DNA from: Candidatus Omnitrophota bacterium
Lineage (GTDB): Bacteria; Omnitrophota; Gorgyraeia; Zapsychrales; Fredricksoniimonadaceae
Direction: 5' to 3'
Assembly (NCBI GenBank): GCA_037131245.1
Contig: JBAXRK010000001.1
Span: 24,385 to 88,384 of the forward strand
Length of the DNA: 64,000 nucleotides
In this document: positions 1 through 64,000 of the stretch, piece after piece
How positions within the stretch are numbered: the stretch's first letter is position 1
Layout of the letters: every line of letters begins with the position of its first letter
Notes under the pieces: generated by a model
Databases searched by the model: none
The model's input: the letters and a program-made list of their open reading frames with translations, nothing else
What the model was told of the DNA's origin: nothing
Made by a program: the position numbers and the translations under genes

Positions 1-1745
1 GGATTAAAATCACGGGACTTCTTGATAAGGGCGAGCTTGTACGCCGCGCGGTCATTATAAAGAGCAGACAGTTCACGGACCACCATCAGGAATTGCCGGC
101 CGGTCTCCTGACGGGCACGGATGGAAGCCGCGTCATTATCGATACCAAAACCATCCACGCCAAAAAGCGTGCCCAACTTCTGCAGGAAGTCGGACAGGCC
201 GCCACGACGCGCCACGATCACAAAAGCGTGCAGGAGCGCCTGCTGGACATTCGCCAGCCCGCAGGGCTCATCGATCGAGAGCATGATACCGCCCACGCTG
301 CCTGAAGGGATCTGATCGCCGAGGTCAGCGTCAAAAGCCTTGATGAAGCGGAAGTTCGCCTTGAACTCTTCGCGCCCGGCCAACTCCTCAAGCTTTGCTT
401 CAACCCATTCGCCCACGATATCCAGTGCCTTGCCGGTGGCTTTGTCGCGCGCCACGTTCCCCAGGATCACCAGCTGAACGCGGGCGCCTTTGCCATCCAG
501 GTCGAGGCGCAGGAGCTGCTCAATAAGCGTCTCCCCGGTCTCTTCAGTCATCACCGTGAACAGGACATTCAAACCTTTCTGTTTCACGATACGGGTCACA
601 ATACCGAGAGTCAGATGGTTCGGGTTGGTATCATCAAGGCCAAGCTTTTTCTGCAGGGCGCGTTTGTTATGTTCCTTGAACAAAGCGGGGTCTTTATCAT
701 CCTGCGTAAAACCGTCGCGGGCCAGCGCCGAACGGGCGGCCGGCACGTAATTAGCCACGCGCAGGCCGCTATACACCGCGGCCAGTTTTTGCTCGTAAGA
801 CCTCAGCACGCCATCGAGGCCATAACCGCGCTCTTTGGTGAGCACTTCGGCCATGTTGCCCTTGCTCACAAAAACAACAGTATCGGAGTAGATGAAAGCG
901 CCTTTCATAAAATCATGCCGGCCGGCGATAGCGCCATCAGGGAAGGACGACCAGAATTCCAGGCCATTATTCCCGGTGGCATACTGCAGCTCAGGACGTA
1001 AATGGGTCAGCTTGAACAACTCCACCACACCCTGCGTCTTGCTCGTGCTATAGAAATTATGGATCGGGTCCTGATAGCCGCGATGGCGCGCCAGGACACC
1101 CAGGCCCAGGAGATGACGGACCAGTTGGCTATTGAGCGCGACTTTCATCTCTCCGGGGAAAATCCCCTGATATTCGAGGTTATGCGTGGTAAAGATCGAC
1201 GCCGGACGAGCACTGCTGAAAGCGTAAAGTTCACGCAGGAACACCGCGCCCAGGCCGGTCTGCCAATCATTGAAATGGTAAAGGTCGATCTTAACGTTGA
1301 GCCAGAACTTGAGCTCCACCGCCAGCCGCGGCAGCAGGACCGCTTCGAGATAGCCGCCAAGGGAATCCGGATGCGGCGCGGTGTAAAGATTGTTAAAGAG
1401 GTTGCCCGTCACATCAAGCGGCAGCAGGAAGGAACAACCCTGCTGTTCGAGGTACACCACCTTAAGCGGATAGCTGGCGTTGCCTGCCGGGACGGGGATG
1501 GTCATCAGGTCCACCGCGCCGCTCTGGGCGAAGAAAGCCTCGACCGAGTGGAAGCTCTTGAGCACGTCCGCCAGGAACAAAGGCTTCACCACCATGACCG
1601 CGTTACCAACCTCGGCCATCACCGGCGGCACATCGCCCATATACACATGCTGGCCGCCACCCGCGGTGGATTCACGCTTGAGCTCGCGGCCGGTCGACGG
1701 GATGATCACCGGGGATTCCATCGCGGCAAAGACCAAGGACAATTT
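1..1745 (-). other. Domain: glycogen/starch synthase (GlgA-type, GT5 GT-B)-like, running to the left edge of the window
   Basis: AGGGQHVYMGDVPPVMAEVGNAVMVVKPLF; IDLYHFNDWQTGLGAVFLRE; SIFTTHNLEYQGIFP; KGAFIYSDTVVFVSKGNMAEV; NKRALQKKLGLDD..LGIVTRIVKQKGLNVL; QLVILGN; GGIMLSIDEPCGLANVQQALLHAFVIVARRGGLSD. These are collinear with the GlgA motifs TGGLadV / hDWqt / T.HNl.yQG / sptya.E / nK..Lq..lGL..RL..QKG / q.v.LG.G / PS.fEPCGL.Q..a..yG..P.v...GGL.D. Confidence 0.8.
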
Positions 1746-4700
1746 TCCGGCGGCTTTCGCGCGGTCGATACGTTCCACCATGGCGCGGCGCGCGTAATAG
1801 GTCTGCCCCATGCGCCACTCGGGGTAACGCTTCAGAAGCTTGTCAAGGTCGGCCAGGAGCGTGTCGTCATTAAAGATCGACGACCACAGCACCGCGTGAA
1901 TAGCGTCAGCGCGGTAGGGCTCAATGATATGGTTGAATTCGTCTTCAATGATCTTCTCGAGGATGCGCGCGGGCACATTATTTGCCCAGGCGCTTAACTG
2001 CAGGACCGGGAAAGTCTGCGAACGATCAATGAAAGCGATGGGGCCCGCGCGCGGATGGATCTTCACCGGCAGGCCATCGGCCAAAGCGCCATTAAGGTTG
2101 ACCTTCGCCCTGTCACCCAGGCGAGCGAGGACATTCTTGACCGCGCTGGATAGCATTTTCTCGGTGCGGGCCGCTTCGCCTTCAAAACTTTCCACGCGCA
2201 CGCGGCCGGCGGTCAATGAGACCAGCAACTCGCCGTTGATATTTTCCGGATAGGCCGGGACGGTGAGCGGGAAGGTTTCCGGAATACCCACCTGCCTTAA
2301 ATAAGCCAACCGCGCAACGATCCGCGCCATCTCCCTATCATAAGAATTCCGCAGATCAGGGTTTGCCACACGTTCTTTTTGTACGGTCAAAATATTCCCG
2401 ATACTTCCCACCGCTTCAGCATAGATTTCCACAGCTTGTGCGGAGCCCTGCCCCCACTGAGCAGTCAATTGACTTTCAGCAGCCTCCAGAAGAAGCCGCC
2501 GTCCGACCGTAAGTCCGACAAACGCAAGATCAGTCTCACTAAACAAAGCCGCCACTTCATCCATGTTCAAGTCAAAAATATCATCTGTGCGTGCAAAAGA
2601 CTCAGGGAACATCCGTGCTACCACACGCAAATGCTCGGCCGTCATTCTCTGCAAACGGACGATCCAATCATGCATATCATTACGGATAATGCTATTGACC
2701 TCCGCCAGCGCCATCACACGCTCCATGGTCGGATAAGCGTTAAGAACGCCTGTGACCGTCTCCCGCTGATCACGCCATTGACCCAGACGCTCCAAGATGC
2801 CCGCTACAACCTCTTCGGACGGAACACCTCTTGCGGCAGCTGCCAGATCGATCAATTTCACCAGAGTAAGATCGTTATCACGGACCCTGCGATAATAATC
2901 AGCCGGGGCAATCTTTTCAGGGAATGCAGCATAAAAACGGCGAATGTGATACCAGTTAAGGCCAACCAGCTCCTCTCGAACATTCGCTATTCGGGCAAGC
3001 CGGGCAACACTGTCAAAGAATTTAACAACATCAACTTCCCCCGAAACACGTAGATCCTCATGATCAGTTTTGTACTGAGACGATTCCATCATGACACGGG
3101 CCGCCAACTCGGGAGCCGCCTTTTGGAACGCAACCCAATCACCAGCCTTAAGAACCTCCAATGCGCCTTCAACTGAACCAGCCTCCAGAACCAGAAGCAA
3201 CATTGCCTTGCGCTTCTCATAACGCAAATTCCTCTGTTCTAAAGGATAGCGCCTCCAAAAAGCCATTTCCCGGACCAAAGCAGCATAGCTAATACCCGCG
3301 GCATCATTTTCCCGGCGCAAATAAGCGTCCTGCGGCATCAAATAACGCGCATTAAATACATCCTGGTAACGGAACACAGTCGTCGACCAGAACAACGAAC
3401 GCTCAAGGGTCCGCATCAGCGGCCCGAGATTGTCCCCGCTTGGAACTCCAAAATTCGAAATAAAAACCTCCAGCTCTTTAATAAACGCCATCCGCTGCTG
3501 GTTAAAGAACTCAAACCCCTCCAAAGTCAAACCATTGAAAAACCCTTCGAGGTTATCCATATCTTCGGCGCGAACGGAGAATATGCGGTCTTTGATCCTC
3601 TTAACGGCCGCAGCAGACACAACAGCAGCTCCGCTGAACGAACCCGAAGGCCAATCCAATGCTGAAGATATGGCCTCCGATAATTCAAATGCTCTCCAGT
3701 AATAATCCAGCTGAAGATACGAATACTGTTTACGGGGTTTTCCAAACCAAACGCCATCAACATCATGGATCGTGTTCGGGTGATCCGATGTAAGGCGCTG
3801 GGGAGCCAATGTAACAGCTGCGACCTCGCTCCATATCGACCGTTGTAACTGGACGCTCTCAACGGGTTGCTCTCCAAGATAAACAGTCTTACGGCGCGCA
3901 TCAAATGTAACGATCCGGCCATCCCATCGGGACAGTACGTCCATGGCGTTAACAACCCCGACCAATGATGGAATATTTAACCAGGGCTCACGCGAAGCAA
4001 TGGCCGTATGGCAATTCATATCTCCGGCATCTGTGATGACCCCGCCGGCCCGCGTCAACGCATCATTCCAACGGTTAGTCGTTGAATGGACAACAAGAAC
4101 AACCCCCTGCCTGACCTGAGCATATCCCTCCCCGTCACGGATGATCTGCAGTGGACCGGTCACAGCACCGGAATTCGCATTGATCCCGTTTTCGAACATA
4201 ACCGCATCAACAAATATTCCGTCCCTTAAGGCGACCGTCTTGACCTCAATGAACTCTCCCGGATTCGAGCAAGTCAACGGCCTGGCCTGAACGATCCAAA
4301 GACAGCCGGTATTCTTCTCGAGAACAAACTCAACATCCACATGCCGCCCATTATCTTTCGAAAGCGAACGATACGCGTCCCTGATCTCCCTGACTAAAAA
4401 GCCCAACGCCAGGACCTCCTCAGGCTTGAGGACCGCCTCCTGCCGAGGCTGCTTGAGCTGAACCGTCTCCGTAAGGCCGGCAGAAAGCATTTGCGTCATC
4501 ACGGTTTTGGTCGCGATCCGTTCCTCAAGAATGAATTTCGCGTCCGGGCTCACCAGCCAGGTATCTGTCTGAGAATCACCGCCGACGACTGATTCTCCGA
4601 GCCCCAGGCCAGCCGTGATCCGCAAAGCCGGGCGAGCCGTTCCGGTCCCATCCATCGAACAAACAACGCCCGCCGCTGCGGCATCCCCAACCATCGCCTG

Positions 4701-7700
4701 AAGGACAACCGCCATAGCTCCCGCTTCCAGCGGAAGGCCGTTACGCAAACGATAAAGAACAAAACTTGGATCAAAGAAACTGGCCCAAACACTCACCACA
4801 GCTTGCCGCATGGCTGCCTCAGTCGTCACATGGAGTACCGATAAAGCCTGGCCGGCGCAAGAAAACTTTTCCCCGTCTTCAAACGTAGCGGAACTGCGAA
4901 CGGCCACATCATGACCCAGCATCCGCAGTGCAGCGGACAACCGTTCACGGACGGCTGAAGAAATACCAGCTCCGGCCACCAAAGATCTCAGCTTATCGGA
5001 GATCCCCTGAACCTCATCTGCTATGTCCGCGGATCTGCGCGGATCTGCGGCGGAAAATTGCTTGCCCAGGGCCGTCAACCTTGCCCATAAGGAACCAGCC
5101 TCGGGCAACCCGATGATCAGATCTTCAAACGCCTTGGCGCTCAATATCAATGTCTCAGGGACACGGAGCTTCCCTTCAGCGCTACCCTGGGCAACCATTG
5201 AATGAAGAACGCCCATGTTCTTCCCCTTGCCCCCGGCAACCTTAACATCAGCAACCCTGGGATCCGTCAGACTAAACAAATAATCATCCCGGCCAAAAGC
5301 CAATCTGAAATCCACATCAGCGGCCGGCGTAACATCAGCGAATGGCTGGTCCTCCAATCGAACGCCCCAATCGTGATCCTGTTTGACCTTTTCCACAAAT
5401 TCATTGAAGATCCGATCCCCCTGGCAGGAATGATTCGCGCACAATGACGGGATCACTTTCTCCCGCACCGAGCGGCTGGCATCCCAGAAATCCTTGAACT
5501 GAGCATGCTTGTACAAGATCCCGAACCTGAAATCCTGGCGGTCCGACTGTTCAAACCCGGGGAAAGCGTTATAAATACAGGGCAGGCCCATACCGACCGG
5601 GTTGACGAAAAGCTTGCGTATGCTTGCCCAGCAACGAGGGCCATTGCATCCCGGGAACACAGAATTCCCCTTGGTAAAATCATCCCACCTGACAAAAATG
5701 AAGAAATTCGAACCGGCATACTTCTTCTCGAGACGACGCAGATTCTCCAGGGCCTGAGCTTCCTGCTCTTTGGTCAATTCATACTTAATATCGAAACTCT
5801 CGTGCTTTAACCGGCGCACCTTGAGCCTGTCCACCCCAAGGCCAATGGCAAATTCCACCAACCGGTCGAACTGGTCATAATTGCTCTGCAAGATCAGCGG
5901 AGCGAACGAAATACTCGCGAGACGCGTCCGCTTGGGGTCAAGCAACTCAACGGTATTCTTGCCGATCGACGCATTATCCTGAACTTCATACCCGCGCTTG
6001 ATCAACTCGGCCTTCCTCGCCGTCAGCAAACGGACATGCTCTACCACCTTATCGAAAGCCTCAACATTCACTCCAGTCAGGCCCTTACTGGCGATGTACT
6101 GATCTTTATTGCCGAAGTCGAGGCTGATCTGCAGATCGTCAACGTGGGTTAAAAGAAAATCAAGGAACCTCTCCTGCGAGCCCTGGAACCTTGCCAGCAA
6201 TCTGGGATTGTTCAACTTAAACCCGGTCGTCACGAACCTGGTATTGAACCCCGCGGCACGGGCCTCTTTGAGAATATCGATCGAGAACTCTTCTTCCGTC
6301 GGCTCCAGGCCACCGGAGACGATCGCCCATTCCGCCTTTGCCGCACGTAAATCACGGAGGTACCCCCTGATCTTCAACTGCATTTCCCTGCTCTCTCTCA
6401 TCTTTTTAACTTCAGCCAGCAGGCACTTGAACGGCGCCCCATAGTCCTGGTCAAAATATCTCCCGCCGTGTTTGGTAAGATTCGGACAATACTGGCACCG
6501 TAATGAACACGCCAGGGAAGGATGGAATTCAATTTCCATCGGGAAAGGATTCCCGCCGGTAATGGCCGCCTGCCAAAGCGCCCGCTGTTTATTGAGGATC
6601 ATCTTGTAATTATCGTAGTAATAGGTCGGAGTCTCGATCTCGAAAGCAGACTGCAGATACTGCGAATGCCGGATTAACCCGTAAAAGCGCACCAAACCAT
6701 CAAGCTGTAATCCCAGGGTTGCGGCGATCTTTTGGGAAGACATGGTCATGCGGCGCATTAAAAGCCGTATCAACTGGCTCAGGGAAGCAGCATCCTGATC
6801 ACTCAGATCAACGGCAAACTCCCTAAGAATGGCCTCTTTCAAAACACGTGTTTCCGCCTCGTAAAGATCCTCGTCTTTTAAGCCCCGACTGCCGGTATGC
6901 CGCAGGAAATCTCCCCAACCCGCTTTAGAACCCGCGGGCCTGAGCAAAGAGCCCCGGACGAACGGCTGGGCCGCCAGCGCGATACCAAAGGCCAGGTCGT
7001 CTTTAACTTTTTCAACCGCCTCATTCGAAGCACGCTCAAAAAGCATGCAGGCGCCGCACTTGGCAGGCAGAATGCCCTGCGATCGACGGGCCCGAACCTC
7101 CGGCTTATTCCAATATTCCGTGAACGAGGCGTATTCAAAAATAGACCGATCTGCGTTAAGAACATAATCCTGACCGCACATCCGCTCCTGCCCCGGATGA
7201 GCCGTATAACAGCACGCAATGCCCGCACCATACGGATTGATGATCGTTTTATATTCGTCGCGCCAGCAACGTCCGGCCCGGACCTGTTCTGTGGTCCGCG
7301 CGTCTTTCGCAAAATCTTCAAAATTGATCCGGACCTTGAACGCCTGATCCATTTCATACTCGCGCCGGATCTCCTCCAGAACAACCGCCACCTGGGGATA
7401 AAGCACGGGATGCGGCTTCACCAGACTGGCCATCTCGTGCCTGATGGCGATCGCATCGACTCCCATATCCTTGAACCTCGATACGATCTCTTTCAGATGC
7501 GCGGCATTCTCATCGATAACAAGGAGCGCGATCTCAATGTGCACCCCCACTCCGCCCGACCGCCTTCTTGACCGGACCAGGCCGGCAATATTCCCCAGGA
7601 CCCTGTCATAGGAAGGATCCCCGGCCGGCAAGCCCTTGCTGCGGTTATAGGCCTCTGCGTATTCGGCTCCGGCGAAATCAAGGCTGACCCTCAACTTCGT

Positions 7701-58700: not shown

Positions 58701-61700
58701 TTCAGGCGCCGCAAAGGAATACACGCCTTGAGGATCCTTTGTCAAGGGCATCCCAAACGCTATACTGGCATTTCCCTCTTCACCCAAAGCTCCGGCAACA
58801 AGAATGGCTTTATTCCCATTCCCGTCAAAACGGACATTTCTCTGGCCTCGATAATCATCGGCATAAATAAAGCGGACACGATCGGTATTATTACCCTGCA
58901 AGACCACCGTGGTCAGGCCGATGGGCGAATCGACGCCCTCGATGATCTGATCGCCTTTTTCGATCCCCAGGGAAGAATTGAAATCCGCGGACAAAGTCGT
59001 AGTCGTTCTCATGCCATCCGCCGCGACCTTCACTTCTGTCACAGTCTGCACAGGAACATCGGCAATAACAACATTTTCGGCATCCATCACGGCAGTACCA
59101 TTACCCGTAGACTCCAGAGGCACGACCGTGGCTTTACGGCCCTTCTGATCCCTAACCACGCCAGTCAAGGTCCGAGTGCCATCCTGAGCAACCGTTGAGA
59201 TCACTTGTGTCTTGCGGTCAAACTCCTGGCCCGGCTTCAAGGTGAGCTTGCCCTGCGTGATCTGGACGTCACGATCCTCGGCACCCGTATTACGCGCCAC
59301 ATAAGCCGTCATGACCTCCGGTTTACGCGTATCGGCAATACGGGAAGGAATGATCTTGCCCACAAGGCTTGTCAGCATGATCCCCAGGGCGAACTTCTGG
59401 TCGCCCGCGTTGATCTTGCCCTTCAGATCCGTAATGCTTCCAGTCAGGCTGTCCGCTGTGAGCTCTTCGCGGGACTTGTCCACATGGGTACCCAGCGCCG
59501 TCTTCAATTCTTCACTGATAGCGCCACCTTTAGCGATATCCAGGCTCATCAGCATCAAAGCGCTCAAGCTTTCCTGATTGACTTTCATCAGCCACTCAGC
59601 GCCACCGATGGTATGATCCATCAGGACCTGATCGTTCACGTCATAGCGGCCATTACGCATCAAGCCATAAACTTTATCCAGGACAACCTTATCCTGACCG
59701 GCCGCGGTCTCCCTTTGCTTATTAAGGAATGCCGTGATCCGCATGTTATGGAGCGTGGTCACGATAAAGTGGCGGATCGCGAAGGACTGCTGGAGCGCCT
59801 GCATATACTCGGTGGTCAGCCTAAGGTCCCCAACATCATAGGTAAACACATTCTGATTCCGGGCCCAGGCCGCGGTACGAGCTTCGAGCTCCTTGGCAAA
59901 AGTAGCCAGGCCGACATCGCCCTTAGCATTGGCCAGCACCGTCTTAATATCTGACTGGACTTCTTTCAAATTGGCGAAAATGCCATCCATGACCTCTTCA
60001 TTGAACAGGACATACTTCTTACCCTCAACATCCTGGTCACGGTTATTGCGGTTGACGGCATGAGTCAGGTTAGCCGTGGTCCAATGCTCGGCATCGGCCA
60101 CGATAACGTCCAAATTACCCTTAAAGCTATGCTGTTTAGCCATGATCGGGAGCGCGACCGTAATGCCAGGGATTTCCTGGCCGGCATAGGTACCCGTCTT
60201 TTCAATAGCCTGACGGATCTGGTCTTCATTCGCATTACCATCGATCGCCAAAGCGCCAAACTGCTCCTGGATCTCTTTTAACAGGGCAATATCGGAGACA
60301 AGCACCAATGTCCCGCGGCCTTTAGCTTTGGCTTCGGCCACCAGGGCGGCAATACGCTGCTTTAAGGCCACACGATCGCTAACACGGCCGGTAGTCACAT
60401 GATCTTTATGGGTCTCAGGTAAAGCCGCCTGTTTCCAGACATTGCTCTCATCTTTTTCATCACCGGCAATGGTGGTACCGGTCTTGGCCTGGATCAGGGC
60501 ATCAGTGCCCATCCGTGTGGCGGTAAGACCAACCACCAGGCCACCCTTGGTGTCAAAGATCTCTTCGATCGGGTTCTCGGCCACGGTCTTGTCGCTGAAA
60601 GCAATGGCGTCAACATCGATCTTGTCTTCTTCTTTAGCCGTTTCATTATAGATCTCGGCCTTGGCCAGCTTGTCGATGAACTCGCCGATCATCTTGTCGT
60701 GCACCCGGCCCATGCGGTCCACATGAACGAACTGGTTGCGCTTGCCTTTGCCATCACCACTATCAACCTTGGCCAGCGCCAAACGGGTACCTTCCTTCTC
60801 AAAGAGAGACCGGATCACACCACTAAGAATATCCGCTTGCTGGCCTTTATAATCCTGGCGCAGAGCATCGGACACCAGCAGGTCGGTATGGCCGGCCTGG
60901 GTGGTATTCAAGGCTTTATTAAAGTAGATCGCTTTAACACCGTTTTCATTAGCAAGCTTGAACTCCTCAAGCGAAGCGATAACCTTGATCTCTTGAGTGC
61001 TCATTTTAGCGCGAACATCCTTCAGGATCGACCGGATGGACGCCATCAGCTTCTGCGTATTGGCATCTTTAACCCCGGTCTTACCCTGGGTGGAAATATA
61101 CGTCTTCTCCATTGTTACCAGATCGTCCACTTCGTCCGCCACGATGTGCAGGTTCTGCTTCATCTGATCCAAAGCCAGGCGTACATCCGCAACGGCCGCC
61201 TGGATCGGCTGGCTGTCATGGGACACGGAATCAGCACTGAAATAAACCGGCATGAACCCGCGTTGATCGATGGAGAAAAGCTTGAGTTTCTTCTGATCCC
61301 TGAGGTCCGCGGCGATCACTTTCAACTGAGCGAGCGTGTCAGCTTCGATCTGACGGCTTGCGGGCGTTCCAGTGGGCGTCTTGGCCTGTTTCTCGCGTAG
61401 ATCAGAATATGTCTTGTAAAGGCCGTCCATGGCGGATAAGGCAAAGCCTTTTTCAGCAAGCAGCTTCTGGATGACCGGGGTTAAATAATCGGTACCGCCA
61501 GCCAGTAACTTCTGATAGTCAGACTCATCACGGACCAGGAAGTTGGTTTGCAGGCCTTTTTCCATGAAAAGGATCGTAGCGGCAATACCCACCAGCGTTT
61601 TACCTTTGGCGTTCTCGGCAATAGCGGTCTTTCCCTGAACCAGGCTAAGCGTCATTTTCTTCTGCTCATCTACCCTGGCATCCAACGGCCGGCCGACTTC

Positions 61701-64000
61701 CCTGCCGATCTGTTTGATCCGGTCAAAAAGGGCGTTAACTTCCTGCTCCGTAACCTGCGCGCCATCCGCCTTCTGCGCGGCATTCATCGCCAAAGCGGGA
61801 GTACGGCCGGACATCTCGTTAAGCAGACGGGTCGGATAATCAATAATATTCCTGATGATCTGCATGGGCGTGGGAATAGCCCCGGAAGGAACATTGGACG
61901 GCAGCGGCGCATTGTTCTGCTGAACGGCCCACTCAGGCACGCCCTGTTTCTTGAACGTTTGAGCGCTGACCTCGGGCATGGACTCTTCGGTAGCCCCGGT
62001 ATCTTCAAAGAAATGCTTGCCATCGTACTTGGCAGGAGCGGGAGCCGCCGTAACCTCGGCAACCGGCTGGGCCACCTGATCGGCCGCTGTTTCAACCGTG
62101 GCCGGAGCTTCATCCATAGCCTTGACCGTGGCGGCAAGTTCGGCCTGGGCCGCCAACACGGTGCGCGGCTGGACACCGTTCTCGATGGCCTCGATCTTGG
62201 AGTTATACAAGTTATAAGCGTTCTGGAACTGGGTCCGGGTGATCTTGCCGGCCGCGAAACGCTGGGCCACGCGCTTGATCTTACCCTTATAAGCGATGAC
62301 CTCGATCTCTTCAGGCGTCTTCTCGATACCAGCCGCCTTGAGGATGTCGTTGCAGTAGATGATCCCTTTAACCATCGCGAAGCTGTACTGCGGCGCCCAA
62401 GCGGCGAGCCAGGTAGCGAACTTGGCTTCGATGGCGACCGCGGCCTGCTCATTGCCCTGCTGGCGGAGCGTCGCGGCCTTGCGGTTGACCGAGAGGGACA
62501 TCTTGTAGACCGTGTTGAAAACTTCGCTCTTCGCGGCAGCGCGGGCGTCAATGATGAACGGCTTGAAGGCGCCCTTACCGCTGAGGAGGCCGTCTTTCTG
62601 GGCCGTCTCAAGCGCTTTGGCGTAAGCGGCATCGCCAATAATACCCTTGATGATCGTCTGCGCGATAATGCCCATGTTCGCGGCCGCGGCCACGATAGAG
62701 GCCATCTCGTTCACCGTGAACTCACCAGCTAAGAACTTATCGGCCAGCACCTTGGCGGCGGCGGCGACTTCACCGGAAAGCTCAGCCTTCGGGGCTTTGT
62801 ACGCGATCACGCCCACGAACGCGGCCAGGAAGCCGGCCTGGTTCTCGATCTTCATGCGGCCCATCAAAGCCTTGATACGCTTGGCCTGGTCAACATTCTT
62901 GTCGGTGGTGACGCCCAGCGCGCCGTTCCAGTAAGCCTGCCAGATATCGCCCGGCTTCCAATAATCTTCGGAAGCCTTCATGGCGTTATTAGCGGCACCG
63001 GTGGAAGAAACTTTGAAGCAGGAACCGAGGTGGTTGGTGGCGTCGTTGGTACCGATCTGGCCAGCCACTTTCTCAATGATCGACAGATACGGCAGGACGT
63101 TCCCGACATTTTCAGGATCAAGATCCCCGGAGGACGCCATCCGGTCATAAGAATTCAGCGCAAGCTCCAGCCGGCCATGATCAAATCTGGCAAAATCGGC
63201 CATATCTTCAAAAACCTTCCGGGCCGTTTTACGATCAATGCCACTGGCTTCCAGGCGCTTCATGATCTTAAGGTTCTCGAGGACGAGGTCGGACACATTG
63301 AAACTAAGCGTCGGGACGACCGCATTGGTCAACGGCTTGGGCATGATGGTGGGCGTCAGGCCATTGTAAACTTTCTGACGATCCAGCATGTTGGTGGTGT
63401 TCCACGCGCCATTCGCGTCAACCGTGACCGGAACAATAACGGGTTTTACCTCACGGGCCAAACCAGAAACAAGGGCCGGCGCGATGATCGTGTGCTTCCT
63501 GAAATTAAAGAAAGACTTCCCGAAGAAGATCTGATTCGGGTCAAAATACTGCCAGGTCTTCCCGTTAATAACGCGGAAGAACCCGAAATGAGACACGGTC
63601 TTGCTCTTTTCAACATCGACATTCAGATTCTCATTGGCATTACCCGAAAGGCCAGCAACGCCAATAACCTGCTTTGCCGTGACCGGAGTGCCGACATCAG
63701 GCAAGCCTTTCTCGTCCAAATGGCTATAGTAGGAATAATAGGGCTCCGTGCCGTTATTGTGCTCAACAATAACCACCCAGCCGTATTGATCCACAAAACC
63801 CACAAAAGCAACCTTACCCGCGGCAACCGACTTAACATCGGAACCAATATCGACGATCACATCATTGCCTAAATGCGGACGTTTTTTACCAGCATTGCCG
63901 CGCAAGGACTGGCCGAAACTGTTAAACCCGACCGCCGCTTTGGCCGAAGAAGCCACGGGCCACTGCAGATCGGCCGTCATCATTGAAGGCCGCGATCCCT
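1..64000 (-). CDS. Interior fragment of a single giant ORF (21,332 complete codons in the window, both termini outside it) encoding a multi-pass membrane, multi-enzyme megaprotein
   Basis: Hand translation of the minus frame (codon top coordinate = 2 mod 3) is open from 63998 to 3. Codon-by-codon spot checks found no stop at 30000-30059 (PQYHDMLNWGAIVIPYKDAS), 45003-45059 (GKAMASRLSAGDWTRILQQ), 41943-42119 and 42240-42299 (the AT-richest stretch). No track ORF lies in this frame. More than 15 independent enzyme signatures share it. Confidence 0.93.
3870..4175 (-). other. Domain: PEP-utilising enzyme mobile (swivel phosphohistidine) domain
   Basis: SGAVTGPLQIIRDGEGYAQVRQGVVLVVHSTTNRWNDALTRAGGVITDAGDMNCHTAIASREPWLNIPSLVGV (compare G.a.G.v......G.ILV...T.P.w......a.GivT..GG.tSHAAIvARElGiPaVvG). 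The candidate catalytic His is in NCH (about 4003-4011). No PEP-binding TIM barrel follows. Confidence 0.72.
4270..5280 (-). other. Domain: PEP/pyruvate-utilising enzyme ATP-grasp (PPDK_N / PEP synthase N-terminal)-like
   Basis: VKVAGGKGKNMGVLHSM; LRVPETLILSAKAFE; VAVRSSATFEDGEKFSCAGQALSVLHV; VWASFFDPSFVLYRLRNG; MAVVLQAMVGDAAAAGVVCSMD; VDVEFVLEKNTGCLWIVQARPLT. These are collinear with the GGKgaNL / VP.gf / VAVRSSA..ED..SFAGQ / ASl...RA..YR / MAV.VQ.MV / W..Q.RP. signatures. Confidence 0.75.
5400..6550 (-). other. Domain: radical SAM enzyme 2 (CX3CX2C) with a Cys-rich C-terminus; paralog of module 1
   Basis: MEIEFHPSLACSLRCQYCPN (about 6483-6513); WAIVSGGLEPTE. C-terminal cysteines: PGCNGPRCWAS..GLPCIY..SLCANHSCQG. 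The N-terminal leader (ATLGLQLDGLVRFYGLIRHSQYLQSAF) parallels module 1 (EQLGLSRVELESIYRYMQANPLIQDAL). Confidence 0.8.
7000..8090 (-). other. Domain: radical SAM enzyme 1 (CX3CX2C) with a Cys-rich, SPASM/twitch-like C-terminus
   Basis: VEVEFHPALWCNLDCEYCYS (Cys codons about 8022-8056); KRVFISGGKEPLAS (GGEP-type SAM motif). C-terminal cysteines: RCWRDEY..GIACCY..RMCGQ..AKCGACMLF. Confidence 0.8.
8910..9890 (-). other. Domain: glycosyltransferase family 9 (heptosyltransferase)-like GT-B
   Basis: VRHILIVKKNGTATRMGVNMYFGMFAHLKTMFPQAQIRVFS (N-terminal pattern ILvi....iGD......l..Lk..fP.a.I). KPVIYFDPHCGSRKGAKNWSQQDSIKFMALL (K.Wp pattern). MSLGSHIALLSAVDMGVVFDTGTAHLLSGLGKQAVVVF (compare sL.el.all..a.l.i..DSGpmHlAaAlG.P.v.lF). 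Confidence 0.6.
11090..11625 (-). other. Domain: HIT-superfamily (GalT / Ap4A-phosphorylase-like) nucleotide transferase or hydrolase
   Basis: RKCPFCVKNYG (CPFC, about 11603-11615); FFEHNMFIVAKEH; histidine triad GRYAKHQHIHVYNV (HxHxHxx, about 11333-11360). Confidence 0.55.
11865..12430 (-). other. Domain: 2H phosphoesterase (LigT / cyclic phosphodiesterase)-like
   Basis: Two H-x-(T/S)-x motifs are spaced about 90 aa apart: GEILHTTFFLPF (about 12275-12297) and KASMLHISLARVT (about 12003-12027). Confidence 0.55.
12540..13215 (-). other. Domain: phosphodiester glycosidase (NAGPA/DUF2233)-like, divergent
   Basis: AIFAINGHQGNYWEGHTMLIRNGQLL (INGGFF..G..I.dG pattern); VAGVVLVRNG; RAGISIVGKDAQGRVVFMTLKRSGADDKAGEAMVKDVAAIAVERGLTEAVLLGASADAQ (R.AIG.d..G.l.l..vDGR..S.G.tl.elA.....G...AlnLDGGGS pattern, partly degenerate). 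Confidence 0.4.
13780..14310 (-). other. Possible (beta/alpha) barrel-like phosphate-binding module (ThiE/NanE-like?); weak call
   Basis: The beta-alpha pattern alternates: GASFVIIVDF / ALVMIAEIDTAAQ / GVDGVVLKHWG / LVIIPAGGIF..LAMPE. The ..PAGGI.. loop near the C-terminus is typical of ribulose-phosphate-binding barrels. Confidence 0.3.
14480..14760 (-). repeat. Paralogous module, copy B (LAPPAVT..IRFASIH)
   Basis: RLPRALAPPAVTFRPAGMADLEVSSFGVPVFAQETVKEMIGIALRSGRLVVQAVRANGSSILIDPANITIRFASIHF. Confidence 0.8.
14930..16830 (-). repeat. Array of six 94-aa (282-nt) in-frame helical repeats
   Basis: The plus-strand landmark gcctgca(a/g)cca recurs at 15079, 15361, 15643, 15925, 16207 and 16489 (period exactly 282). 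The unit is RE.ARVQVALAANDAAK..IK.A.GRQLRAG..AE.H.WLQAMSDVNENNDEK.AVA.YE.VAKAN.DAAKV.ADKGAKDAIAVIVAD.VKVN.. Its W..A..DVN(E/G)(N/G) core relates it to the VNGG repeats at 43850-44830. Confidence 0.9.
15432..16586. repeat. Exact tandem duplication: 564-bp unit (two 282-bp sub-repeats) at 100% identity over about 2.05 copies
   Basis: Base-by-base comparison shows 15432-16022 is identical to 15996-16586 (offset 564 nt, 188 codons). Identity breaks at 15431 (c) versus 15995 (t), and at 16023 (a) versus 16587 (c). Confidence 0.9.
17075..18615 (-). other. TM clusters (about 8 helices) after GT-like copy 2
   Basis: LGLSHFFLRKLPGLVASILFIALMVF..LPLAPIMVAFGYLFMHAITIPAV; LAAPLLPLILYFIPMEPIILLAAGFYIIQVVSWIAGPAV; VAKLILTLTAVVALWFYPVVSVLLAASAVVFVAG; FKIALVVGLGAFLVTYALTVSAFILGLSGMAMTVFKIINLVWLVPVALWSV. 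Confidence 0.65.
18700..19480 (-). other. Domain: glycan-synthase-like GT-A core (FKS/GT48-like), copy 2, probably degenerate
   Basis: ADKFIFNVIPAG..LVKLYADLGVPNIRLLDP (compare Fks1 RKFKFLVSMQ..LLRAYPDLQIAYLDE). MMIGARHMIAQD (compare VGAREYIFSEN). GRGGVGPLCRAAEDSVMGEGILAEGGEIRYSSFVEM (compare [38 protein letters not shown]). The DxD position reads DPS. All comparisons are from memory. Confidence 0.4.
20500..21115 (-). other. TM cluster (about 6 helices)
   Basis: VWVGSFLTWMAMFWSLPKLLVMLGATGSVSIGLIAIPVLFMAILISALFASSGFYL; LVIAAAAFVFGVGMALLFGASFHLHGVVVLIFASMFVAAL; VFWTSIALGLTVIAVTMVSGGFASIATGVWITGAVFASPWIV. Confidence 0.65.
22985..23052 (-). other. Predicted TM helix closing region II
   Basis: VIEITVIGTIALTLLGFLGFINPKRW. 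Confidence 0.65.
24950..25510 (-). repeat. Paralogous module, copy B (WFST-QQIIG module)
   Basis: IVLLGAEGKANSWLSILPSTRTNGVAWFSTIDQQIIGNTNISAQKYLVDL..YTITFSNIFSGATVKESRVILPFIGE..NGFGPLVPTHVTTT. Plus-strand 25381-25435 is about three-quarters identical to 53341-53395. Confidence 0.8.
27430..28320 (-). other. Long alpha-helical / coiled-coil stretch inside region II
   Basis: ALEAYLKQVLQLGRQAHEDSLLSQEAELRTKIY..LEYAQANLEQLNARLALAQ..IEALRRLEEGPGALADLQQQINDLQREVHAKKRALYDQAAEIRQAGEALEQ. Confidence 0.55.
30990..31075 (-). other. Signal-anchor-like TM opening super-module B
   Basis: KKSNRARGLLAAILFVWLAVAPMAVAAPVAAVSS. Confidence 0.6.
31338..31500 (-). other. TM cluster (about 2-3 helices)
   Basis: RVGVIFLKWVAIIWTSFRFFFGLWTPSILFAHLAVILGLWGMKYVISCLISPLW. 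Confidence 0.65.
31850..32660 (-). other. Domain: sugar-phosphate nucleotidyltransferase (NTP_transferase)-like, divergent
   Basis: IGVFLDIKEGRVNRFIEKPRDEK (F.EKP motif, 32034-32060) and QYRINAGVMVSRGS (the INAG(I/V)Y-type motif, 31932-31952). The N-terminal GxGxR loop is not evident. A Cys cluster follows: CASCGVSVDPAQCLSDHAINLC. Confidence 0.4.
32800..33850 (-). other. Scattered TM helices (about 5)
   Basis: NTLLLFVTGFFATLLGIYFFSFF (33780-33850); WVLRPLAAIGTFVFGMQW; VQTVLVMPLLAQIVMMYYSMFFGS; ISLFSQIGALFYYWYSGVTRMGVLALC. Confidence 0.55.
34200..37150 (-). repeat. HEAT/ARM-like alpha-helical repeat array
   Basis: D..VR-type helical hairpin starts recur: DRDVRYMAVRAAQAHP, DPDVRAMAQAWI, DAQVRDAAAQFG, NGQVRTAAAMMLSKI, DVDSRVAAMMQLAQS, DPMARGALAYALGGVRDRGAISLLSDLM, EEHFVRVMAVAAAG. 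Confidence 0.5.
38118..38400 (-). other. Pro/Ala/Thr-rich linker followed by a TM helix
   Basis: KPAKAPAPDTTPVAPPAPPTAPATKPVTKTESAKTTPPPAAEAPKA, then GLRFVGLAVVMALMMAAFWWHQV (38118-38185). Confidence 0.6.
38440..38840 (-). other. Minimal zincin-like motif region, HExxH copy 2
   Basis: NTLVLYVNPALTAKANGQYQYPVDLAKVIFGKHEIEHLRDP. The HEIEH codons lie at 38558-38544. The context is the same as copy 1 (L.(I/L)Y.NP..L, then HExxH). Confidence 0.35.
38930..39350 (-). repeat. Ala/Glu/Lys/Gln coiled coil with an internal 291-nt duplication
   Basis: AAAEHERQAVENAQLKQKLEDD (plus-strand anchor cttctgctttaat at 39267) and TAAEHERLAVENAQLKQKLSNV (anchor at 38976). The offset of 291 nt equals 97 codons. 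Confidence 0.75.
40870..41500 (-). other. Domain: Pol-beta superfamily nucleotidyltransferase head (tRNA CCA-adding / poly(A) polymerase family-like)
   Basis: DRIIIIGGSVRDVFYGRQVNDLDISVLV fits the GGxVRDxxxGxxxxDxDI signature (41392-41445). Downstream, IVQSDTILRLLRHKHQFGLSI fits the ..DPLR.LRa.RF...f.I helix. Confidence 0.72.
41790..42000 (-). other. Minimal zincin-like motif region, HExxH copy 1
   Basis: GKLWAIYFNPEMLRAPPNVQRIVMAHEFDHVLGYNEEQ. The HEFDH codons lie at 41852-41838. Confidence 0.35.
42650..42730 (-). other. Predicted TM helix (inside the AT-rich island)
   Basis: LSYIAAYVVLILVAWPILVRLGRFINAFW. Confidence 0.6.
43060..43340 (-). repeat. Paralogous module, copy A (LAPPAVT..IRFASIH)
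   Basis: RLPQVLAPPAVTRNADGSVDLDLSSYSVPEPLQQAFKDVLLAALRSGQMVVQYALTDGRIVSALPADINIRFASIHL. Copy B lies at 14480-14760 (offset 28,584 nt at the IRFASIH anchor). Confidence 0.8.
43850..44830 (-). repeat. Four helical repeats carrying a VNGG motif
   Basis: RMKWTAGVRQALVAVNGGDLKKAQEKL (about 44690-44720); RMNWTTGLRQALVDVNGGDLKKAQKKL (about 44485-44520); LVAYRQAMMDVNGGKMPKD (about 44131-44160); RMDWNQGLRRALVDVNGGNAKKAQEQL (about 43885-43920). Spacing is irregular (about 204, 355 and 240 nt). Confidence 0.8.
46362..46845 (-). other. TM cluster (about 5 helices)
   Basis: YLRWVIFFFLILGYNLFAGLPVYLWVGAIFFSQAISFGALFNIAY; VRFYWFFVNWIWTY; AFWTFLLAAFMGFAPELIALWFLPVMSFVAGWAGMYIL. Confidence 0.65.
46900..47720 (-). 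other. Domain: processive glycan-synthase-like GT-A core (GT2 / FKS-type GT48-like), copy 1
   Basis: LTLDLVDADHHA (DxD-like). GKFMVRTQAMRWSEGLAGDDYVAEDSITTVAFALFGYRTKHLRYYRRGKNW resembles my memory of fungal Fks1 (..[30 protein letters not shown]..). SSYKWASDS is a degenerate QxxRW position. Upstream, SEERRHRIIHFVNDQ (about 48470-48510) resembles Fks1 EAERRISFFAQSL. TM clusters flank both sides. Confidence 0.45.
48910..49520 (-). other. TM cluster (about 5-6 helices)
   Basis: FWMGFWRFTLSVFSGA; MIIILSAGLGGVILWNAISQISYIGIPYLLAANWYLVIAVPLALLIAQGFFLLV; LMVQAGILLSAVALNTFLPVGPSILVYNVLRVVLQILLFAVVFETLRLTFYSMGYLV. Confidence 0.65.
50930..51010 (-). other. Predicted TM helix closing region I
   Basis: HFWANVWGWTKGIATAVLAFPLMYLIYSLLTAGYRAIRR. 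Confidence 0.65.
51010..56427 (-). other. Large non-membrane region I (about 1,800 aa; Gly/Asn/Thr/Val/Tyr-rich, probably beta-rich and extracytoplasmic); function unknown
   Basis: It has no hydrophobic helices and lies between two TM anchors (56427-56492 and 50930-51010). Composition and short alternating motifs suggest a beta-rich fold. No catalytic signature was recognised by eye. Confidence 0.4.
52850..53470 (-). repeat. Paralogous module, copy A (WFST-QQIIG module)
   Basis: ITLIDTTGAPEGWLSFTDTTKADGIAWFSTINQQIIGDVNLSAQKFLVDL..YTIVFQNVLNGQVIKEHRVVVPYVGE..NGYGPIIASHVETV. It matches copy B at 24950-25510 at nucleotide offsets 27,960 and 27,891. Confidence 0.8.
56427..56492 (-). other. Signal-anchor-like TM opening super-module A
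   Basis: LRHIFSLALAVLLFTAVFQGTTSRAEDSSS. Confidence 0.6.
56500..57770 (-). other. Basic, Arg/Asn/Val/Gly-rich low-complexity (probably disordered) linker
   Basis: Example: TVNVVNVVFVAIGRLVAAVKK..ANVANTVNVARRIVVNAVRRAVNGAKAQVKVAGNNRESNERANVQAGRSTARNHARDNGRSNTNARED.. and GVERVGAGKENG..GVKGVESVGQG. No enzyme motif was recognised. Confidence 0.5.
57775..57915 (-). other. Predicted TM helices (about 2)
   Basis: GGMGLMTLLFTFGTSGTASAATGAGAGGTTPVGALLAFGAILYIGIKNRK. Confidence 0.6.
57930..58080 (-). repeat. Pro-rich low-complexity tract (about 12-nt periodicity)
   Basis: GNGLPPGPIGPTGPVNGPTGPVMPTMPVVPNLPTVPTMPQVPSMPNLPGG. The plus strand shows reiterated ggcat/ggcac-containing 12-mers. Confidence 0.8.
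58246..58296 (-). other. Internal signal-peptide-like / TM segment
   Basis: FFGWAMPKAKKTVAMVALAGALANAPESE: a basic n-region, a hydrophobic core, then an A-x-A-like motif. It is in frame and has no upstream stop. Confidence 0.5.
59990..61700 (-). other. Domain: divergent SecA DEAD-like (SF2) ATPase motor
   Basis: LVQGKTAIAENAKGKTLVGIAATILFMEKGLQTNFLVRDESDYQKL (compare SecA L..GKIAEMKTGEGKTLVA..VVTVNDYLAKRD). LHIVADEVDDLVTMEKTYISTQG (compare [22 protein letters not shown]). GLTATRMGTD (compare MTGTA). ITVALPIMAKQHSFKG..VIVADAEHWTTANLTHAVNRNNRDQD (compare [36 protein letters not shown]; the arginine-rich motif is degenerate). Confidence 0.7.
63520..63905 (-). other. Domain: peptidase M23 (LytM/lysostaphin-type peptidoglycan endopeptidase)-like
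   Basis: RPHLGNDVIVDIGSDVKSVAAGKVAFVGFVDQYGWVVIVEHNNG..YYSHLDEKG..VTAKQVIGVAGLSGNA..VSHFGFFRV. This matches the HxGxD, G.V.A...G.V, gyG..V.I.H, Y.HL and G..G.tG pattern. The terminal HxH is altered (SHFGFF instead of PHLHFE). Confidence 0.72.

Follow-up and report, generated by a model that had tools for sequence, protein, structure and literature searches.

One open frame across the window

The window analysed here, meaning the whole stretch of DNA at its full length of 64 kb, is taken up on its minus strand by one reading frame that runs unbroken through 21,332 codons (3..63998); in this register, with codon starts at coordinates of 2 mod 3, no TAA, TAG or TGA occurs from position 63998 down to position 3. 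The frame is open at both window edges and forms an inner portion of a longer gene. An initial annotation had described one unbroken frame with neither gene terminus in view and had expected the count of minus-strand stops in this register to be zero; each of these statements is borne out, as is its account of the ORF track, where the 47 minus-strand ORFs of at least 60 aa end at coordinates equal to 1 mod 3 in 43 instances and to 0 mod 3 in the other four. All features described below lie on the minus strand, and residue numbers count from the high-coordinate end of the window.

The remaining five frames contain 274, 702, 873, 1195 and 1580 stops, with a longest open stretch of 2,865 nt, and base composition predicts ~925 stops for the giant frame against the zero found, so that a chance open frame is excluded. 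An alternative genetic code was likewise considered and rejected, since TAA, TAG and TGA are all missing from the frame and recoding is thereby irrelevant.

That the frame reads as real coding sequence is supported by its uniform, protein-like composition and codon use, by strong Pfam domains and by colinear homologues on independent public contigs at ~40% identity. The GC content at codon positions 1, 2 and 3 is 0.59, 0.40 and 0.63, the translation holds 0.3% Cys and 11.5% Ala, and eight successive segments of the frame each show a codon usage that correlates with that of the whole at 0.93–0.97. A search of the window placed no Rfam family and no tRNA inside the giant ORF, and promoter- or terminator-like sites were no commoner than in shuffled controls over nt 1–60000. 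The long ORFs on the antisense strand, which reach 890 aa, lack a credible Pfam match and were therefore treated as shadow ORFs. We consider it close to certain that the window is a piece of a genuine giant gene.

Domain organisation and internal duplication

From its N-terminal side, the encoded protein begins with an M23 peptidase-like domain and ~2,000 aa that are free of helices and poor in Cys, continues into duplicated blocks of ~3.5 kaa, and later includes HEAT repeats, tandem copies of a 94-aa unit and a helix-poor, Cys-rich tail. Membrane helices and topology are taken from a hydropathy scan only; the scan returned 38 non-overlapping 19-residue stretches with a Kyte–Doolittle mean of at least 1.6, which fall into ~10 clusters and carry at most one charged residue in 30 of the 38, in agreement with the more than 30 hydrophobic helices first claimed. 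The helix density of the window resembles that of published giants. The claim of more than 15 unrelated enzyme signatures, by contrast, proved to be an overcount: profile searches recover ~9 domain families (M23, HEAT, GT9, two radical SAM, SPASM, PPDK_N, PEP-utilizers and GT5), to which the two GT48-like modules discussed below are to be added. M23, HEAT_2, GT9, Radical_SAM, PPDK_N, PEP-utilizers and GT5 score above their Pfam cutoffs, NCBIfam models give domain-level matches far under family cutoffs, and ~17,000 aa of the window have no Pfam or PDB sequence match.

The Peptidase_M23 domain (LytM/EnvC-like, aa 41–131, 63606..63878; PF01551, 52 bits against a cutoff of 28.7) keeps its HxxxD motif (H42..D46, HLGND), while HxH is reduced to a single His (VSHFGF). 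Its PDB matches are EnvC and LytM proteins, the best being EnvC, a non-catalytic activator. It is followed by a helix-free stretch of ~1,900 aa (aa 132–2055, 57834..63605), which has two Cys and no convincing membrane helix by hydropathy, and in which Pfam and PDB searches detected no domain. We infer that this stretch lies outside the cytoplasm, on the same side of the membrane as the M23 domain.

Two super-modules, A (aa 3510–6999, 43002..53471) and B (aa 12830–16849, 13452..25511), are ancient paralogues. Their anchor pairs (3510–3849 with 12830–13139, 5534–5885 with 14930–15310, 6577–6645 with 15697–15773, and 6883–6999 with 16411–16527) are colinear, at offsets of 9120–9530 aa, and aa 13438–15642 of B are also colinear with the public proteins P0048 and P0071 described below. 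Between the two super-modules lie HEAT repeats (aa ~9551–9615, 35154..35348; PF13646, 60 bits against a cutoff of 27.7) and hydropathy-defined clusters of hydrophobic helices (aa 10053–10358 and 10830–10996, 31011..33842) without a Pfam or PDB match. A word-indexed homologue search with aa 10001–11200 and aa 13532–15642 returned nothing, which reflects the sensitivity limit of that method, as homologues do exist for aa 14250–15449.

Smaller repeats are superimposed on this pattern. A tandem repeat of 282 nt (94 aa), detected by TRF and self-BLAST, runs in frame for ~5 copies (aa ~15780–16250, 15249..16661), and alternate copies are ~94% identical, giving an A-B-A-B arrangement. Alignment also reveals three copies of a ~130-aa domain, at 14400..14810, at 13437..13847 and, in super-module A, at 42972..43382. 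An AlphaFold2 (AF2) model of this domain (pLDDT 81, pTM 0.72) shows a helix, a small β-sandwich and a second helix, for which no significant sequence or fold neighbour was found. The gene has thus grown in part through internal duplication, with the ~3.5-kaa block and the radical-SAM unit each present twice, the 130-aa domain three times and the 94-aa repeat about five times; duplication of the ~3.5-kaa (~10 kb) block is ancient, and the tandem repeat is recent.

The C-terminal ~5,600 aa form the helix-poor, Cys-rich tail, in which enzyme domains follow one another. The first is a heptosyltransferase-like GT9 domain (aa 18184–18340, 8979..9449; PF01075, 31.5 bits against a cutoff of 22). Two radical-SAM/SPASM units come next, at aa 18573–19013 (6960..8282) and aa 19088–19553 (5340..6737); these are paralogues of 30% identity, and both match PF04055 and have an intact CX3CX2C motif (CNLDCEYC at aa 18650 and CSLRCQYC at aa 19164). 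The SPASM part of the first is weak (17 bits against a cutoff of 21.5), and NCBIfam places this unit near DesII/viperin-like proteins, under cutoffs. The third element combines ATP-binding and phosphohistidine swivel domains of the PEP-synthase/pyruvate-phosphate-dikinase kind (aa 19574–20117, 3648..5279; PF01326 at 177 bits, PF00391 at 49.5 bits, PDB PEP synthases at E 1e-32) and retains the swivel His (about H19997, in NCHTAIASRE). A C-terminal PEP/pyruvate-binding TIM barrel was not detected with Pfam or NCBIfam, whose match spans profile positions 6–473 of 798 only and stays far under family cutoffs; by sequence, the domain is closer to PEP-synthase-like phosphotransferases than to a genuine PEP synthase. 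The tail reaches the window edge within a GT5 starch/glycogen-synthase-like domain (aa 20742–21332, 3..1775; PF08323, 84 bits), whose PDB matches are starch and glycogen synthases and whose identity to the second of the GT5 domains in P0071 is 43%. This domain, cut by the window edge, scores 137 bits against a cutoff of 328 for TIGR02095, and its KxGGL motif is replaced by AGGGQ.

FKS/GT48-like modules and their public relatives

Each super-module carries a module with distant similarity to the FKS family of 1,3-β-glucan synthases. Module A (aa ~4860–5910, 46269..49421) consists of a helix cluster at 4877–5015, a soluble part, a core at 5534–5885 with the motifs VDADHH, VAED (E5631/D5632) and ISSTGKGAT, and then a helix cluster at 5723–5865; its core is matched at E 6e-36 by a profile made solely from external homologues. 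Module B (aa 14294–15642, 17073..21119) has a helix cluster at 14325–14464, a soluble glycosyltransferase-like part and helix clusters at 15138–15400 and 15588–15633, with the motifs QDVSN..FEE (14934), GHAESTWTHP (14985), AAED (E15057/D15058) and PTDRSGW (15237). An exhaustive phmmer search returned 23 homologues of aa 14250–15449, the best at 42% identity (E 1e-205).

When a profile of module B (A1) was run against 177,635 PDB sequences, FKS1 was the sole match (E 2.6e-6, in two colinear stretches), and with profiles A2 and A4 FKS1/GSC2 were again the top PDB matches at weak E values of 0.02–0.03. Across these three profiles, FKS1/GSC2 are the sole PDB sequences matched, in colinear stretches at about 870–979, 1156–1316 and 1380–1494 of FKS1. 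Both modules carry motifs of the D-x-D-like, ED and (S/T)TG(R/K)G-like kinds, and NEDIYAG and ISTGRGFAT of FKS1 align with the latter two, residues that we take to be catalytic in FKS1. Neither module of the window matches the Pfam Glucan_synthase family (PF02364) directly, and the GT48 link rests on profiles and intermediate sequences: PF02364 is matched by 4 of 14 family members; the remote homologue P0065 passes the Pfam cutoff (44.8 bits against 37.2), and P0056 reaches E 1e-6. One relative also matches GT2 models, such that the family may sit between GT2 and GT48. An AF2 model of module B from a 14-sequence alignment was of low confidence (pLDDT 47 overall, 25–38 in the core), and Foldseek found no significant PDB match for it. 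Taken on this profile evidence, the homology of the modules to FKS/GT48 is probably real.

The comparison with FKS1/GSC2 (CAZy GT48; PDB 7XE4, 7YUY, 8JZN and others) reveals a common layout, in which a cytosolic glycosyltransferase part is set between two helix clusters. However, identity is very low, and in the window the module occurs twice, embedded in a polypeptide that exceeds 21,000 aa. To our knowledge, the GT48 family is regarded as essentially eukaryotic. Glucan-synthase or GT48-like modules receive no mention in the giant-gene literature searched, which includes the catalogue of Nielsen & Lui 2026.

The closest sequence relatives of the window are P0048 (MHC4114465.1, annotated as ‘glycogen synthase, partial [Planctomycetota bacterium]’) and P0071, a 5,291-aa JGI ‘starch synthase’, and the best homologue reaches 42–43% identity. 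In three parts of the window (aa 13438–14712, 14851–15642 and 20742–21332), independent public fragments align colinearly at 28–43% identity. Like the window, P0071 and P0048 place a GT5 domain after a GT48-like module, but the spacing between the module and the matching GT5 is ~1,150 aa in P0071 and ~5,100 aa in the window. Compared with P0071, the 94-aa repeats, GT9, both radical-SAM units and the PEP-synthase-like domain are gains of the window, whereas P0071 has an extra GT5 and runs ~800 aa further.

The homologues P0048, P0049, P0050, P0053, P0054 and P0056 are all annotated as ‘partial’ and fill their contigs, and the loci L004 (that of P0048) and L006 show an open frame along their full length, which suggests that the GT48-like module normally resides within very long ORFs. 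A degenerate motif scan recovered L006, an Omnitrophota MAG contig, together with one short JGI contig; the GT5 end retrieved no relative from the genome and metagenome contig collections. Labels of Omnitrophica or Omnitrophota are carried by P0004, P0049, P0050, P0056 and L006, which match two separate regions of the window; P0054 is labelled Elusimicrobiota and one homologue Thermoproteota. Bin labels are unreliable on contigs of 4–11 kb.

Proposed function and relation to known giant genes

The explanation that fits best, and which we hold to be likely, is that the window derives from the interior of a genuine multi-enzyme, membrane-anchored giant gene of the type known from Omnitrophota, in an uncultured lineage. 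What its product does is a more speculative matter, and we only tentatively suggest a glycan-exporting assembly line. In this model, a membrane protein of many helices would act as a fused polysaccharide assembly line. Its C-terminal ~5,600 aa would face the cytoplasm, because the domains there need SAM, Fe–S reduction, ATP and nucleotide sugars. The two FKS/GT48-like modules would polymerise a glycan on the cytoplasmic side of the membrane and pass the chain outwards, as FKS1 and cellulose synthases do, while the N-terminal Cys-poor stretch and M23 would lie outside the cytoplasm in contact with peptidoglycan, either the cell's own or that of a host. In this way the whole protein could make and fix in place a surface coat, or a matrix for attachment, on an ultra-small cell with an epibiotic way of life. 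A bolder version, which we regard as rather doubtful, would have two working bacterial relatives of FKS and callose synthases (GT48) fused with sugar-modifying radical-SAM, PEP-synthase-like, GT9 and GT5 domains in a one-gene factory that both makes and exports a glucan-type surface polymer; the attendant proposal that the ‘partial’ homologues from Omnitrophota, Planctomycetota and Elusimicrobiota form an unrecognised prokaryotic GT48 branch is put forward with the same reserve.

Among the alternatives, the one that survives best is that the ORF is real and its product is not a single polypeptide, being either a polyprotein cleaved into its enzymes or a series of products from internal translation starts. 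A relative locus (L001) distributes comparable multi-enzyme content over neighbouring genes, whose products measure 2,391, 3,105 and more than 3,825 aa, C39 and S8 peptidases have been proposed in the literature to process giants, and the frame contains 545 in-frame Met codons. On the other hand, no processing peptidase was detected in the window, promoter- and terminator-like sites show no excess, and 64 kb without stops argue for selection to keep one frame. We therefore think separate products possible, if rather unlikely.

The published functional reading of giants is prey adhesion and cell-wall degradation, not synthesis (West-Roberts et al. 2023, bioRxiv 10.1101/2023.11.21.568195), and the protein could accordingly serve chiefly for attack at the cell surface, adhering to prey or host cells and digesting their walls, with the glycosyltransferase-like domains processing released sugars. 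A peptidoglycan endopeptidase-like M23 domain does open the window, the adjoining ~2,000 aa contain no helices and little Cys, HEAT repeats occur, and peptides of the V. archaeovorus giant protein have been reported as enriched on attached cells. Yet a Pfam search of the window detected no glycoside hydrolase, lytic transglycosylase, adhesin, dockerin or lectin domain, the M23 HxH is incomplete and the best PDB matches of this domain are to the inactive activator EnvC, and the remaining recognisable domains are all biosynthetic and dependent on cytoplasmic cofactors; we judge this role unlikely. For the link to cell-wall degradation drawn at the outset, the window offers one M23 domain with an incomplete HxH, and most of its recognisable domains are biosynthetic. 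By sequence, the two FKS/GT48-like modules instead point to polymer synthesis and export, not prey digestion alone.

A still less probable alternative is a gene of the same kind in a host outside Omnitrophota, whether from a different phylum of the PVC group or from a neighbouring one (Planctomycetota or Elusimicrobiota, for example). The window is without a marker gene, its best homologue (P0048/P0071, 42–43%) is labelled Planctomycetota and P0054 Elusimicrobiota, and proteins of at least 10,000 aa have also been reported from both phyla (West-Roberts et al.). Against this, four further homologues from two regions bear Omnitrophica or Omnitrophota labels, the combination of many enzymes follows the architecture published for Omnitrophota, and labels on 4–11 kb contigs are a poor guide, one even reading Thermoproteota. 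As the closest relative is labelled Planctomycetota, Omnitrophota as the phylum is likely, not proven, from the sequence of the window.

An artefact, whether from chimeric joining or collapse during assembly, from polishing that erased stops or from a synthetic origin, has a negligible chance of accounting for the locus: the 282-nt repeat, given the near-identity of its alternate copies at the protein level, is a place where copy number may be mis-assembled, and no near-identical sequence was found in the public collections searched, but a misjoin could not yield 21,332 stop-free codons in a single frame, codon usage is uniform, catalytic motifs are intact, and widely separated parts of the frame have colinear counterparts on independent contigs of other samples, with homologues that fill their contigs as open frames.

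Giant bacterial genes are in themselves no longer surprising, and most of their sequence is unannotated. For the genuine giant gene favoured here, part of the unannotated membrane portion appears to resolve into two FKS/GT48-like processive glycan-synthase modules, and a route by which such genes grow becomes visible in an ancient ~10-kb block duplication followed by smaller, more recent ones. In several cases, public ‘partial’ entries that bear a glycogen-synthase or hypothetical annotation are pieces of similar giant ORFs. Should the GT48 link be true, it would provide a prokaryotic outgroup for the fungal echinocandin target and plant callose synthases, and the one-gene polymer factory, if correct, would bear on the origin of fungal and plant β-glucan synthases.

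The preprint named in the initial annotation exists, with the content attributed to it (giant Omnitrophota genes, transmembrane regions, SecA DEAD domains and a cell-wall link). West-Roberts et al. describe giant genes mostly from Omnitrophota, 46 of them longer than 90 kb, and define proteins as ‘large’ from 10,000 aa and ‘giant’ from 30,000 aa; with at least 21,332 codons and both gene ends beyond the window, the present gene exceeds the first of these thresholds. Seymour et al. 2023 found ORFs of more than 20 kb in most Velamenicoccia genomes, and Nielsen & Lui 2026 catalogued 3,650 proteins of at least 10,000 aa, in which 80% of clusters are singletons (bioRxiv 10.64898/2026.06.07.730766). 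Published conserved neighbours are an upstream T2SS/T4P-like locus and downstream pilZ and sugar-import genes, and an N-terminal signal or C39 peptidase is a further published trait; the window itself is filled by the ORF alone. SecA_DEAD is found in most full-length giants and is not universal; PF07517 gave no match at E ≤0.1 in 1000-aa chunks of the window, beyond which the domain could lie, and in place of a SecA-like P-loop the window has only three isolated Walker-A-like strings. The proposed fit to this class accordingly stands for the fragment of a real giant gene, its many helices and its Archaeovorin-type domains, and does not extend to SecA_DEAD within the window.

Membership of this Omnitrophota-type class, whether named ‘Archaeovorin’ or ‘multi-enzyme metabolic cluster’, is likely. 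The Archaeovorin type sequence is a 39,678-aa, 42-helix ORF of ‘Ca. Velamenicoccus archaeovorus’ LiM, and the domain set comprises HEAT, GT5/GT1, peptidase, PPDK, methyltransferase, NUDIX and glycoside hydrolase (West-Roberts et al.). No sequence similarity to any named member was detected, and NUDIX, methyltransferase, GT1 and glycoside hydrolase domains were not found within the 21,332 aa of the window. By its sequence, the gene is of a known kind, to which the window adds a new and divergent member with its nearest public relatives at ~40% identity. Archaeovorins differ in that their peptidase is C39 or S8 rather than M23, but the likeness extends to a single ORF of tens of kb, dozens of helices, a mostly unannotatable sequence and the presence of HEAT, GT5, PPDK-type and peptidase domains. 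With the ‘multi-enzyme metabolic cluster’ of Nielsen & Lui the window shares many enzyme domains of which none dominates, membrane anchoring and an essentially unique sequence, and with their ‘Module 2, sugar metabolism’ the co-occurrence of PF08323 and PF04055 with HEAT scaffolding.

A stop-free frame across the window

The minus-strand frame with codon starts at 2 mod 3, read from 63998 to 3, is free of TAA, TAG and TGA over 21,332 codons, as the initial annotation had claimed from a hand translation, and it crosses both edges of the window. Base composition predicts ~925 stops for a frame of this length, which excludes a chance open frame; the remaining five frames carry 274-1580 stops each, their longest open stretch being 2,865 nt. 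The statement that the ORF track hides this frame was also exact, all 47 minus-strand ORFs of at least 60 aa falling in the other two frames (43 and 4). The translation is protein-like in composition (Ala 11.5%, Leu 9.1%, Cys 0.3%), and GC at codon positions 1, 2 and 3 is 0.59, 0.40 and 0.63. When the frame is cut into eight consecutive pieces, the codon usage of each correlates at 0.93-0.97 with that of the whole, a uniformity that speaks against a chimera assembled from unrelated DNA. On the plus strand, GC skew is negative in all 2-kb bins of the window without a switch, the coding strand being G-rich throughout, which is what a single gene on one replichore should show. No Rfam families or tRNAs were found inside the frame, and promoter-like and terminator-like sites over nt 1-60000 showed no excess over shuffled controls.

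The plus strand carries eight antisense ORFs of 300-890 aa, among them those at 53715-56387 (up to 890 aa), 29370-30977 and 15375-16862, and just 274 stops occur in the plus frame at 0 mod 3. Searches of the three longest against Pfam gave no credible match, the one FimV_N match being sub-cutoff and inside the repeat region. These are most plausibly shadow ORFs of the giant frame.

Recognisable domains and two glucan-synthase-like modules

Pfam searches with 4,500-aa and 1,000-aa pieces, together with phmmer against PDB sequences, identified a Peptidase_M23 domain (aa 41-131), HEAT repeats (aa about 9551-9615), a GT9 domain (aa 18184-18340), two radical-SAM units with CX3CX2C motifs at aa 18650 and aa 19164, a weak SPASM match downstream of the first unit, PPDK_N (177 bits) with the PEP-utilizers swivel domain (aa 19586-20035), and a GT5 starch-synthase domain (aa 20787-21066). 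NCBIfam agrees on PEP synthase, GlgA, DesII-like and viperin-like radical SAM, and EnvC, all far under the family cutoffs. The swivel histidine is retained, in 'NCHTAIASRE', and M23 keeps HxxxD with HxH down to a single histidine; the GT5 KxGGL motif is replaced by 'AGGGQ', and the C-terminal PEP/pyruvate-binding barrel was undetected, the NCBIfam PEP-synthase match covering its profile only as far as position 473 of 798. No Pfam or PDB-sequence match covers some 17,000 aa (aa 132-18,000 minus the HEAT stretch), and the more than 15 enzyme signatures counted from the sequence by eye were an overcount.

Two modules, A (aa about 4860-5910) and B (aa 14294-15642), distantly resemble the GT48/FKS glucan synthases. 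When profile A1, built from module B and its homologs, was compared with 177,635 distinct PDB sequences, it found only the fungal 1,3-beta-glucan synthase FKS1 (E 2.6e-6); the match comprises two stretches that are colinear, FKS1 1174-1316 and 1380-1494, and covers 'NEDIYAG' and 'ISTGRGFAT'. Two further profiles, A2 and A4, ranked FKS1 and GSC2 at the top, but weakly (E 0.02-0.03), and extended the colinearity, at the same weak E-values, to a third stretch around the FKS1 'WASLRSQTLYRT' segment. Glucan_synthase (PF02364) is matched by 4 of the 14 family members: the remote member P0065 scores 44.8 bits against a cutoff of 37.2, with GT2 models matching too, and P0056 gives E 1e-6 within the region that aligns to the window. 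The window's own two modules fall below Pfam significance; a profile made from external sequences only finds both, at aa 14787-15640 (E 7.5e-178) and aa 5534-5885 (E 6e-36).

In module B, hydrophobic-helix clusters at 14325-14464 on one side and at 15138-15400 plus 15588-15633 on the other bracket the conserved core (aa about 14790-15640). An ED pair is present in both modules (E15057/D15058 in B, E5631/D5632 in A), and module A additionally carries 'VDADHH' and 'ISSTGKGAT'. The AF2 model of module B is of low confidence (pLDDT 47, core 25-38), and a Foldseek search with it came back empty. Neither giant-gene preprint (West-Roberts et al. 2023, bioRxiv 10.1101/2023.11.21.568195; Nielsen & Lui 2026, bioRxiv 10.64898/2026.06.07.730766) mentions glucan synthase, GT48, FKS or callose, and our literature search found no paper joining glucan synthase with Omnitrophota. 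As a side observation, P0065 (JGI, 2,179 aa) combines a Glucan_synthase/GT2-like module with B12-binding and radical-SAM domains in a single protein, a mix that echoes the window's pairing of glucan-synthase-like modules with radical SAM.

Internal duplications and public relatives

Windowed self-BLAST revealed that aa 3510-6999 and aa 12830-16849 are colinear paralogs with four anchors at offsets of 9,120-9,530 aa, one of which, the GT48-like cores, is detected by profile only; from this alignment we infer that a block of ~3.5 kaa was probably duplicated anciently. The radical-SAM/SPASM unit is also present twice (30% identity). A ~130-aa domain occurs three times on the minus strand, once after module A (42972-43382) and twice after module B (14400-14810 and 13437-13847); AF2 models it as a small beta-sandwich preceded and followed by a helix (pLDDT 81), with no significant PDB sequence or fold neighbour. 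At a smaller scale, TRF found an in-frame 282-nt (94-aa) tandem repeat of 4.7 copies with 88% matches (nt 15287-16604, aa about 15780-16250). Its copies follow an A-B-A-B pattern in which alternate copies are ~94% identical as protein, which suggests recent duplication of a 188-aa double unit, and this tract is the most likely place for an assembly copy-number error.

Two word-indexed protein searches with unannotated regions returned no homologs, while an exhaustive phmmer search of 1.84 billion cluster representatives, queried with aa 14250-15449, recovered 23 proteins, led by P0048 (E 1e-205, 42% identity); word-indexed negatives on such sequence are not evidence of absence. Three stretches of the window, aa 13438-14712, 14851-15642 and 20742-21332, have colinear counterparts in P0048 and its cluster-mate P0071 (5,291 aa), the last at 43% identity over 599 aa, and P0071 runs ~800 aa past the point equivalent to the window edge, which fits a gene continuing downstream. 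The highest identity to any public protein is ~43% in a library clustered at 50%, so at least the searched part of the gene is absent from the collection of ~15 billion proteins.

Six homologs (P0048, P0049, P0050, P0053, P0054 and P0056) are all annotated 'partial', as 'glycogen synthase', 'DUF3450 domain-containing protein' or 'hypothetical', and three times their length equals that of their contigs (4-11 kb); both loci fetched, L004 (P0048) and L006, are a single open frame end to end. They are thus pieces of longer ORFs fragmented by assembly, and look like unrecognised giant-ORF fragments. Candidatus Omnitrophica/Omnitrophota labels are borne by P0049, P0050, P0056 and L006, and the host phylum is likely Omnitrophota. 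The closest homolog, P0048, is labelled Planctomycetota and P0054 Elusimicrobiota; P0053 bears the archaeal label Thermoproteota, probably a binning error. For the C-terminal region the best matches are P0001 (JGI, 3,105 aa, 32% identity) and P0004 (a 'partial' Omnitrophica protein of 2,697 aa). The P0001 locus (L001 1-29318, JGI Ga0558121_00357) holds adjacent same-strand genes of 2,391, 3,105 and >3,825 aa. The row of large genes at L001 and L002, which includes the nearest relative of the PEP-synthase-like region, carries NUDIX, PPDK, PMI, PGM/PMM and NTP_transferase domains, and resembles a 'split' counterpart of the multi-enzyme giant.

Proposed role and comparison with known giant ORFs

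From the domain identities, motifs and hydrophobic-helix and Cys distributions observed in the translation we infer the following topology and role in polymer export. The helix-poor last ~5,600 aa would be cytoplasmic, because radical-SAM chemistry, ATP-dependent phosphotransfer and nucleotide-sugar transferases function in the cytoplasm only. FKS-type synthases likewise have their glycosyltransferase cores on the cytoplasmic side and use their helices as the export path; the M23 domain with the adjoining 1,900 residues, free of helices and poor in Cys, would be extracytoplasmic. Of 61 Cys, 28 are in aa 18000-20000 (the radical-SAM/PPDK region) and only 2 within the first 6,000 aa, a distribution consistent with a tail in the cytoplasm and an N-terminal part outside it. 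We therefore tentatively read the giant protein as a fusion anchored in the membrane that would modify and activate sugars, whose two synthase modules would polymerise and export a glycan and whose extracytoplasmic part would be displayed in contact with cell wall, the whole serving as a coat or attachment apparatus of an ultra-small epibiont. Giant proteins have also been hypothesised to degrade prey walls (West-Roberts et al. 2023, bioRxiv 10.1101/2023.11.21.568195), a rival that differs in emphasis from coat building and that we retain as rather improbable. The product may also be cleaved into several products.

Known Omnitrophota giant ORFs are rich in membrane helices, poorly conserved, and carry few domain annotations. 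In V. archaeovorus LiM such an ORF encodes 39,678 aa and 42 helices, and ORFs >20 kb occur in 77 of 116 Velamenicoccia genomes (Seymour et al. 2023). West-Roberts et al. 2023 (bioRxiv 10.1101/2023.11.21.568195) reported 46 genes >90 kb, of up to 85,804 aa, and an Archaeovorin domain set that includes HEAT, GT5, PPDK and peptidases. Nielsen & Lui 2026 (bioRxiv 10.64898/2026.06.07.730766) described 3,650 proteins of at least 10,000 aa, the largest reaching 147,155 aa; 94% are membrane-targeted, singletons make up 80% of sequence clusters, and a 'sugar metabolism' module holds PF08323 and PF04055. The window agrees with the Omnitrophota giants on each feature testable inside it, bar SecA_DEAD, which is undetectable in the window beyond three isolated Walker-A-like strings. 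The initial assignment to this class is supported, with the caveats that no SecA domain was detected in the window, that the phylum is likely rather than proven, and that the enzyme signatures were overcounted. The window ORF is a divergent addition to the documented Omnitrophota giant-ORF class; a giant ORF per se is now expected biology, and the new, testable details here are the FKS/GT48-like modules and the duplication history.
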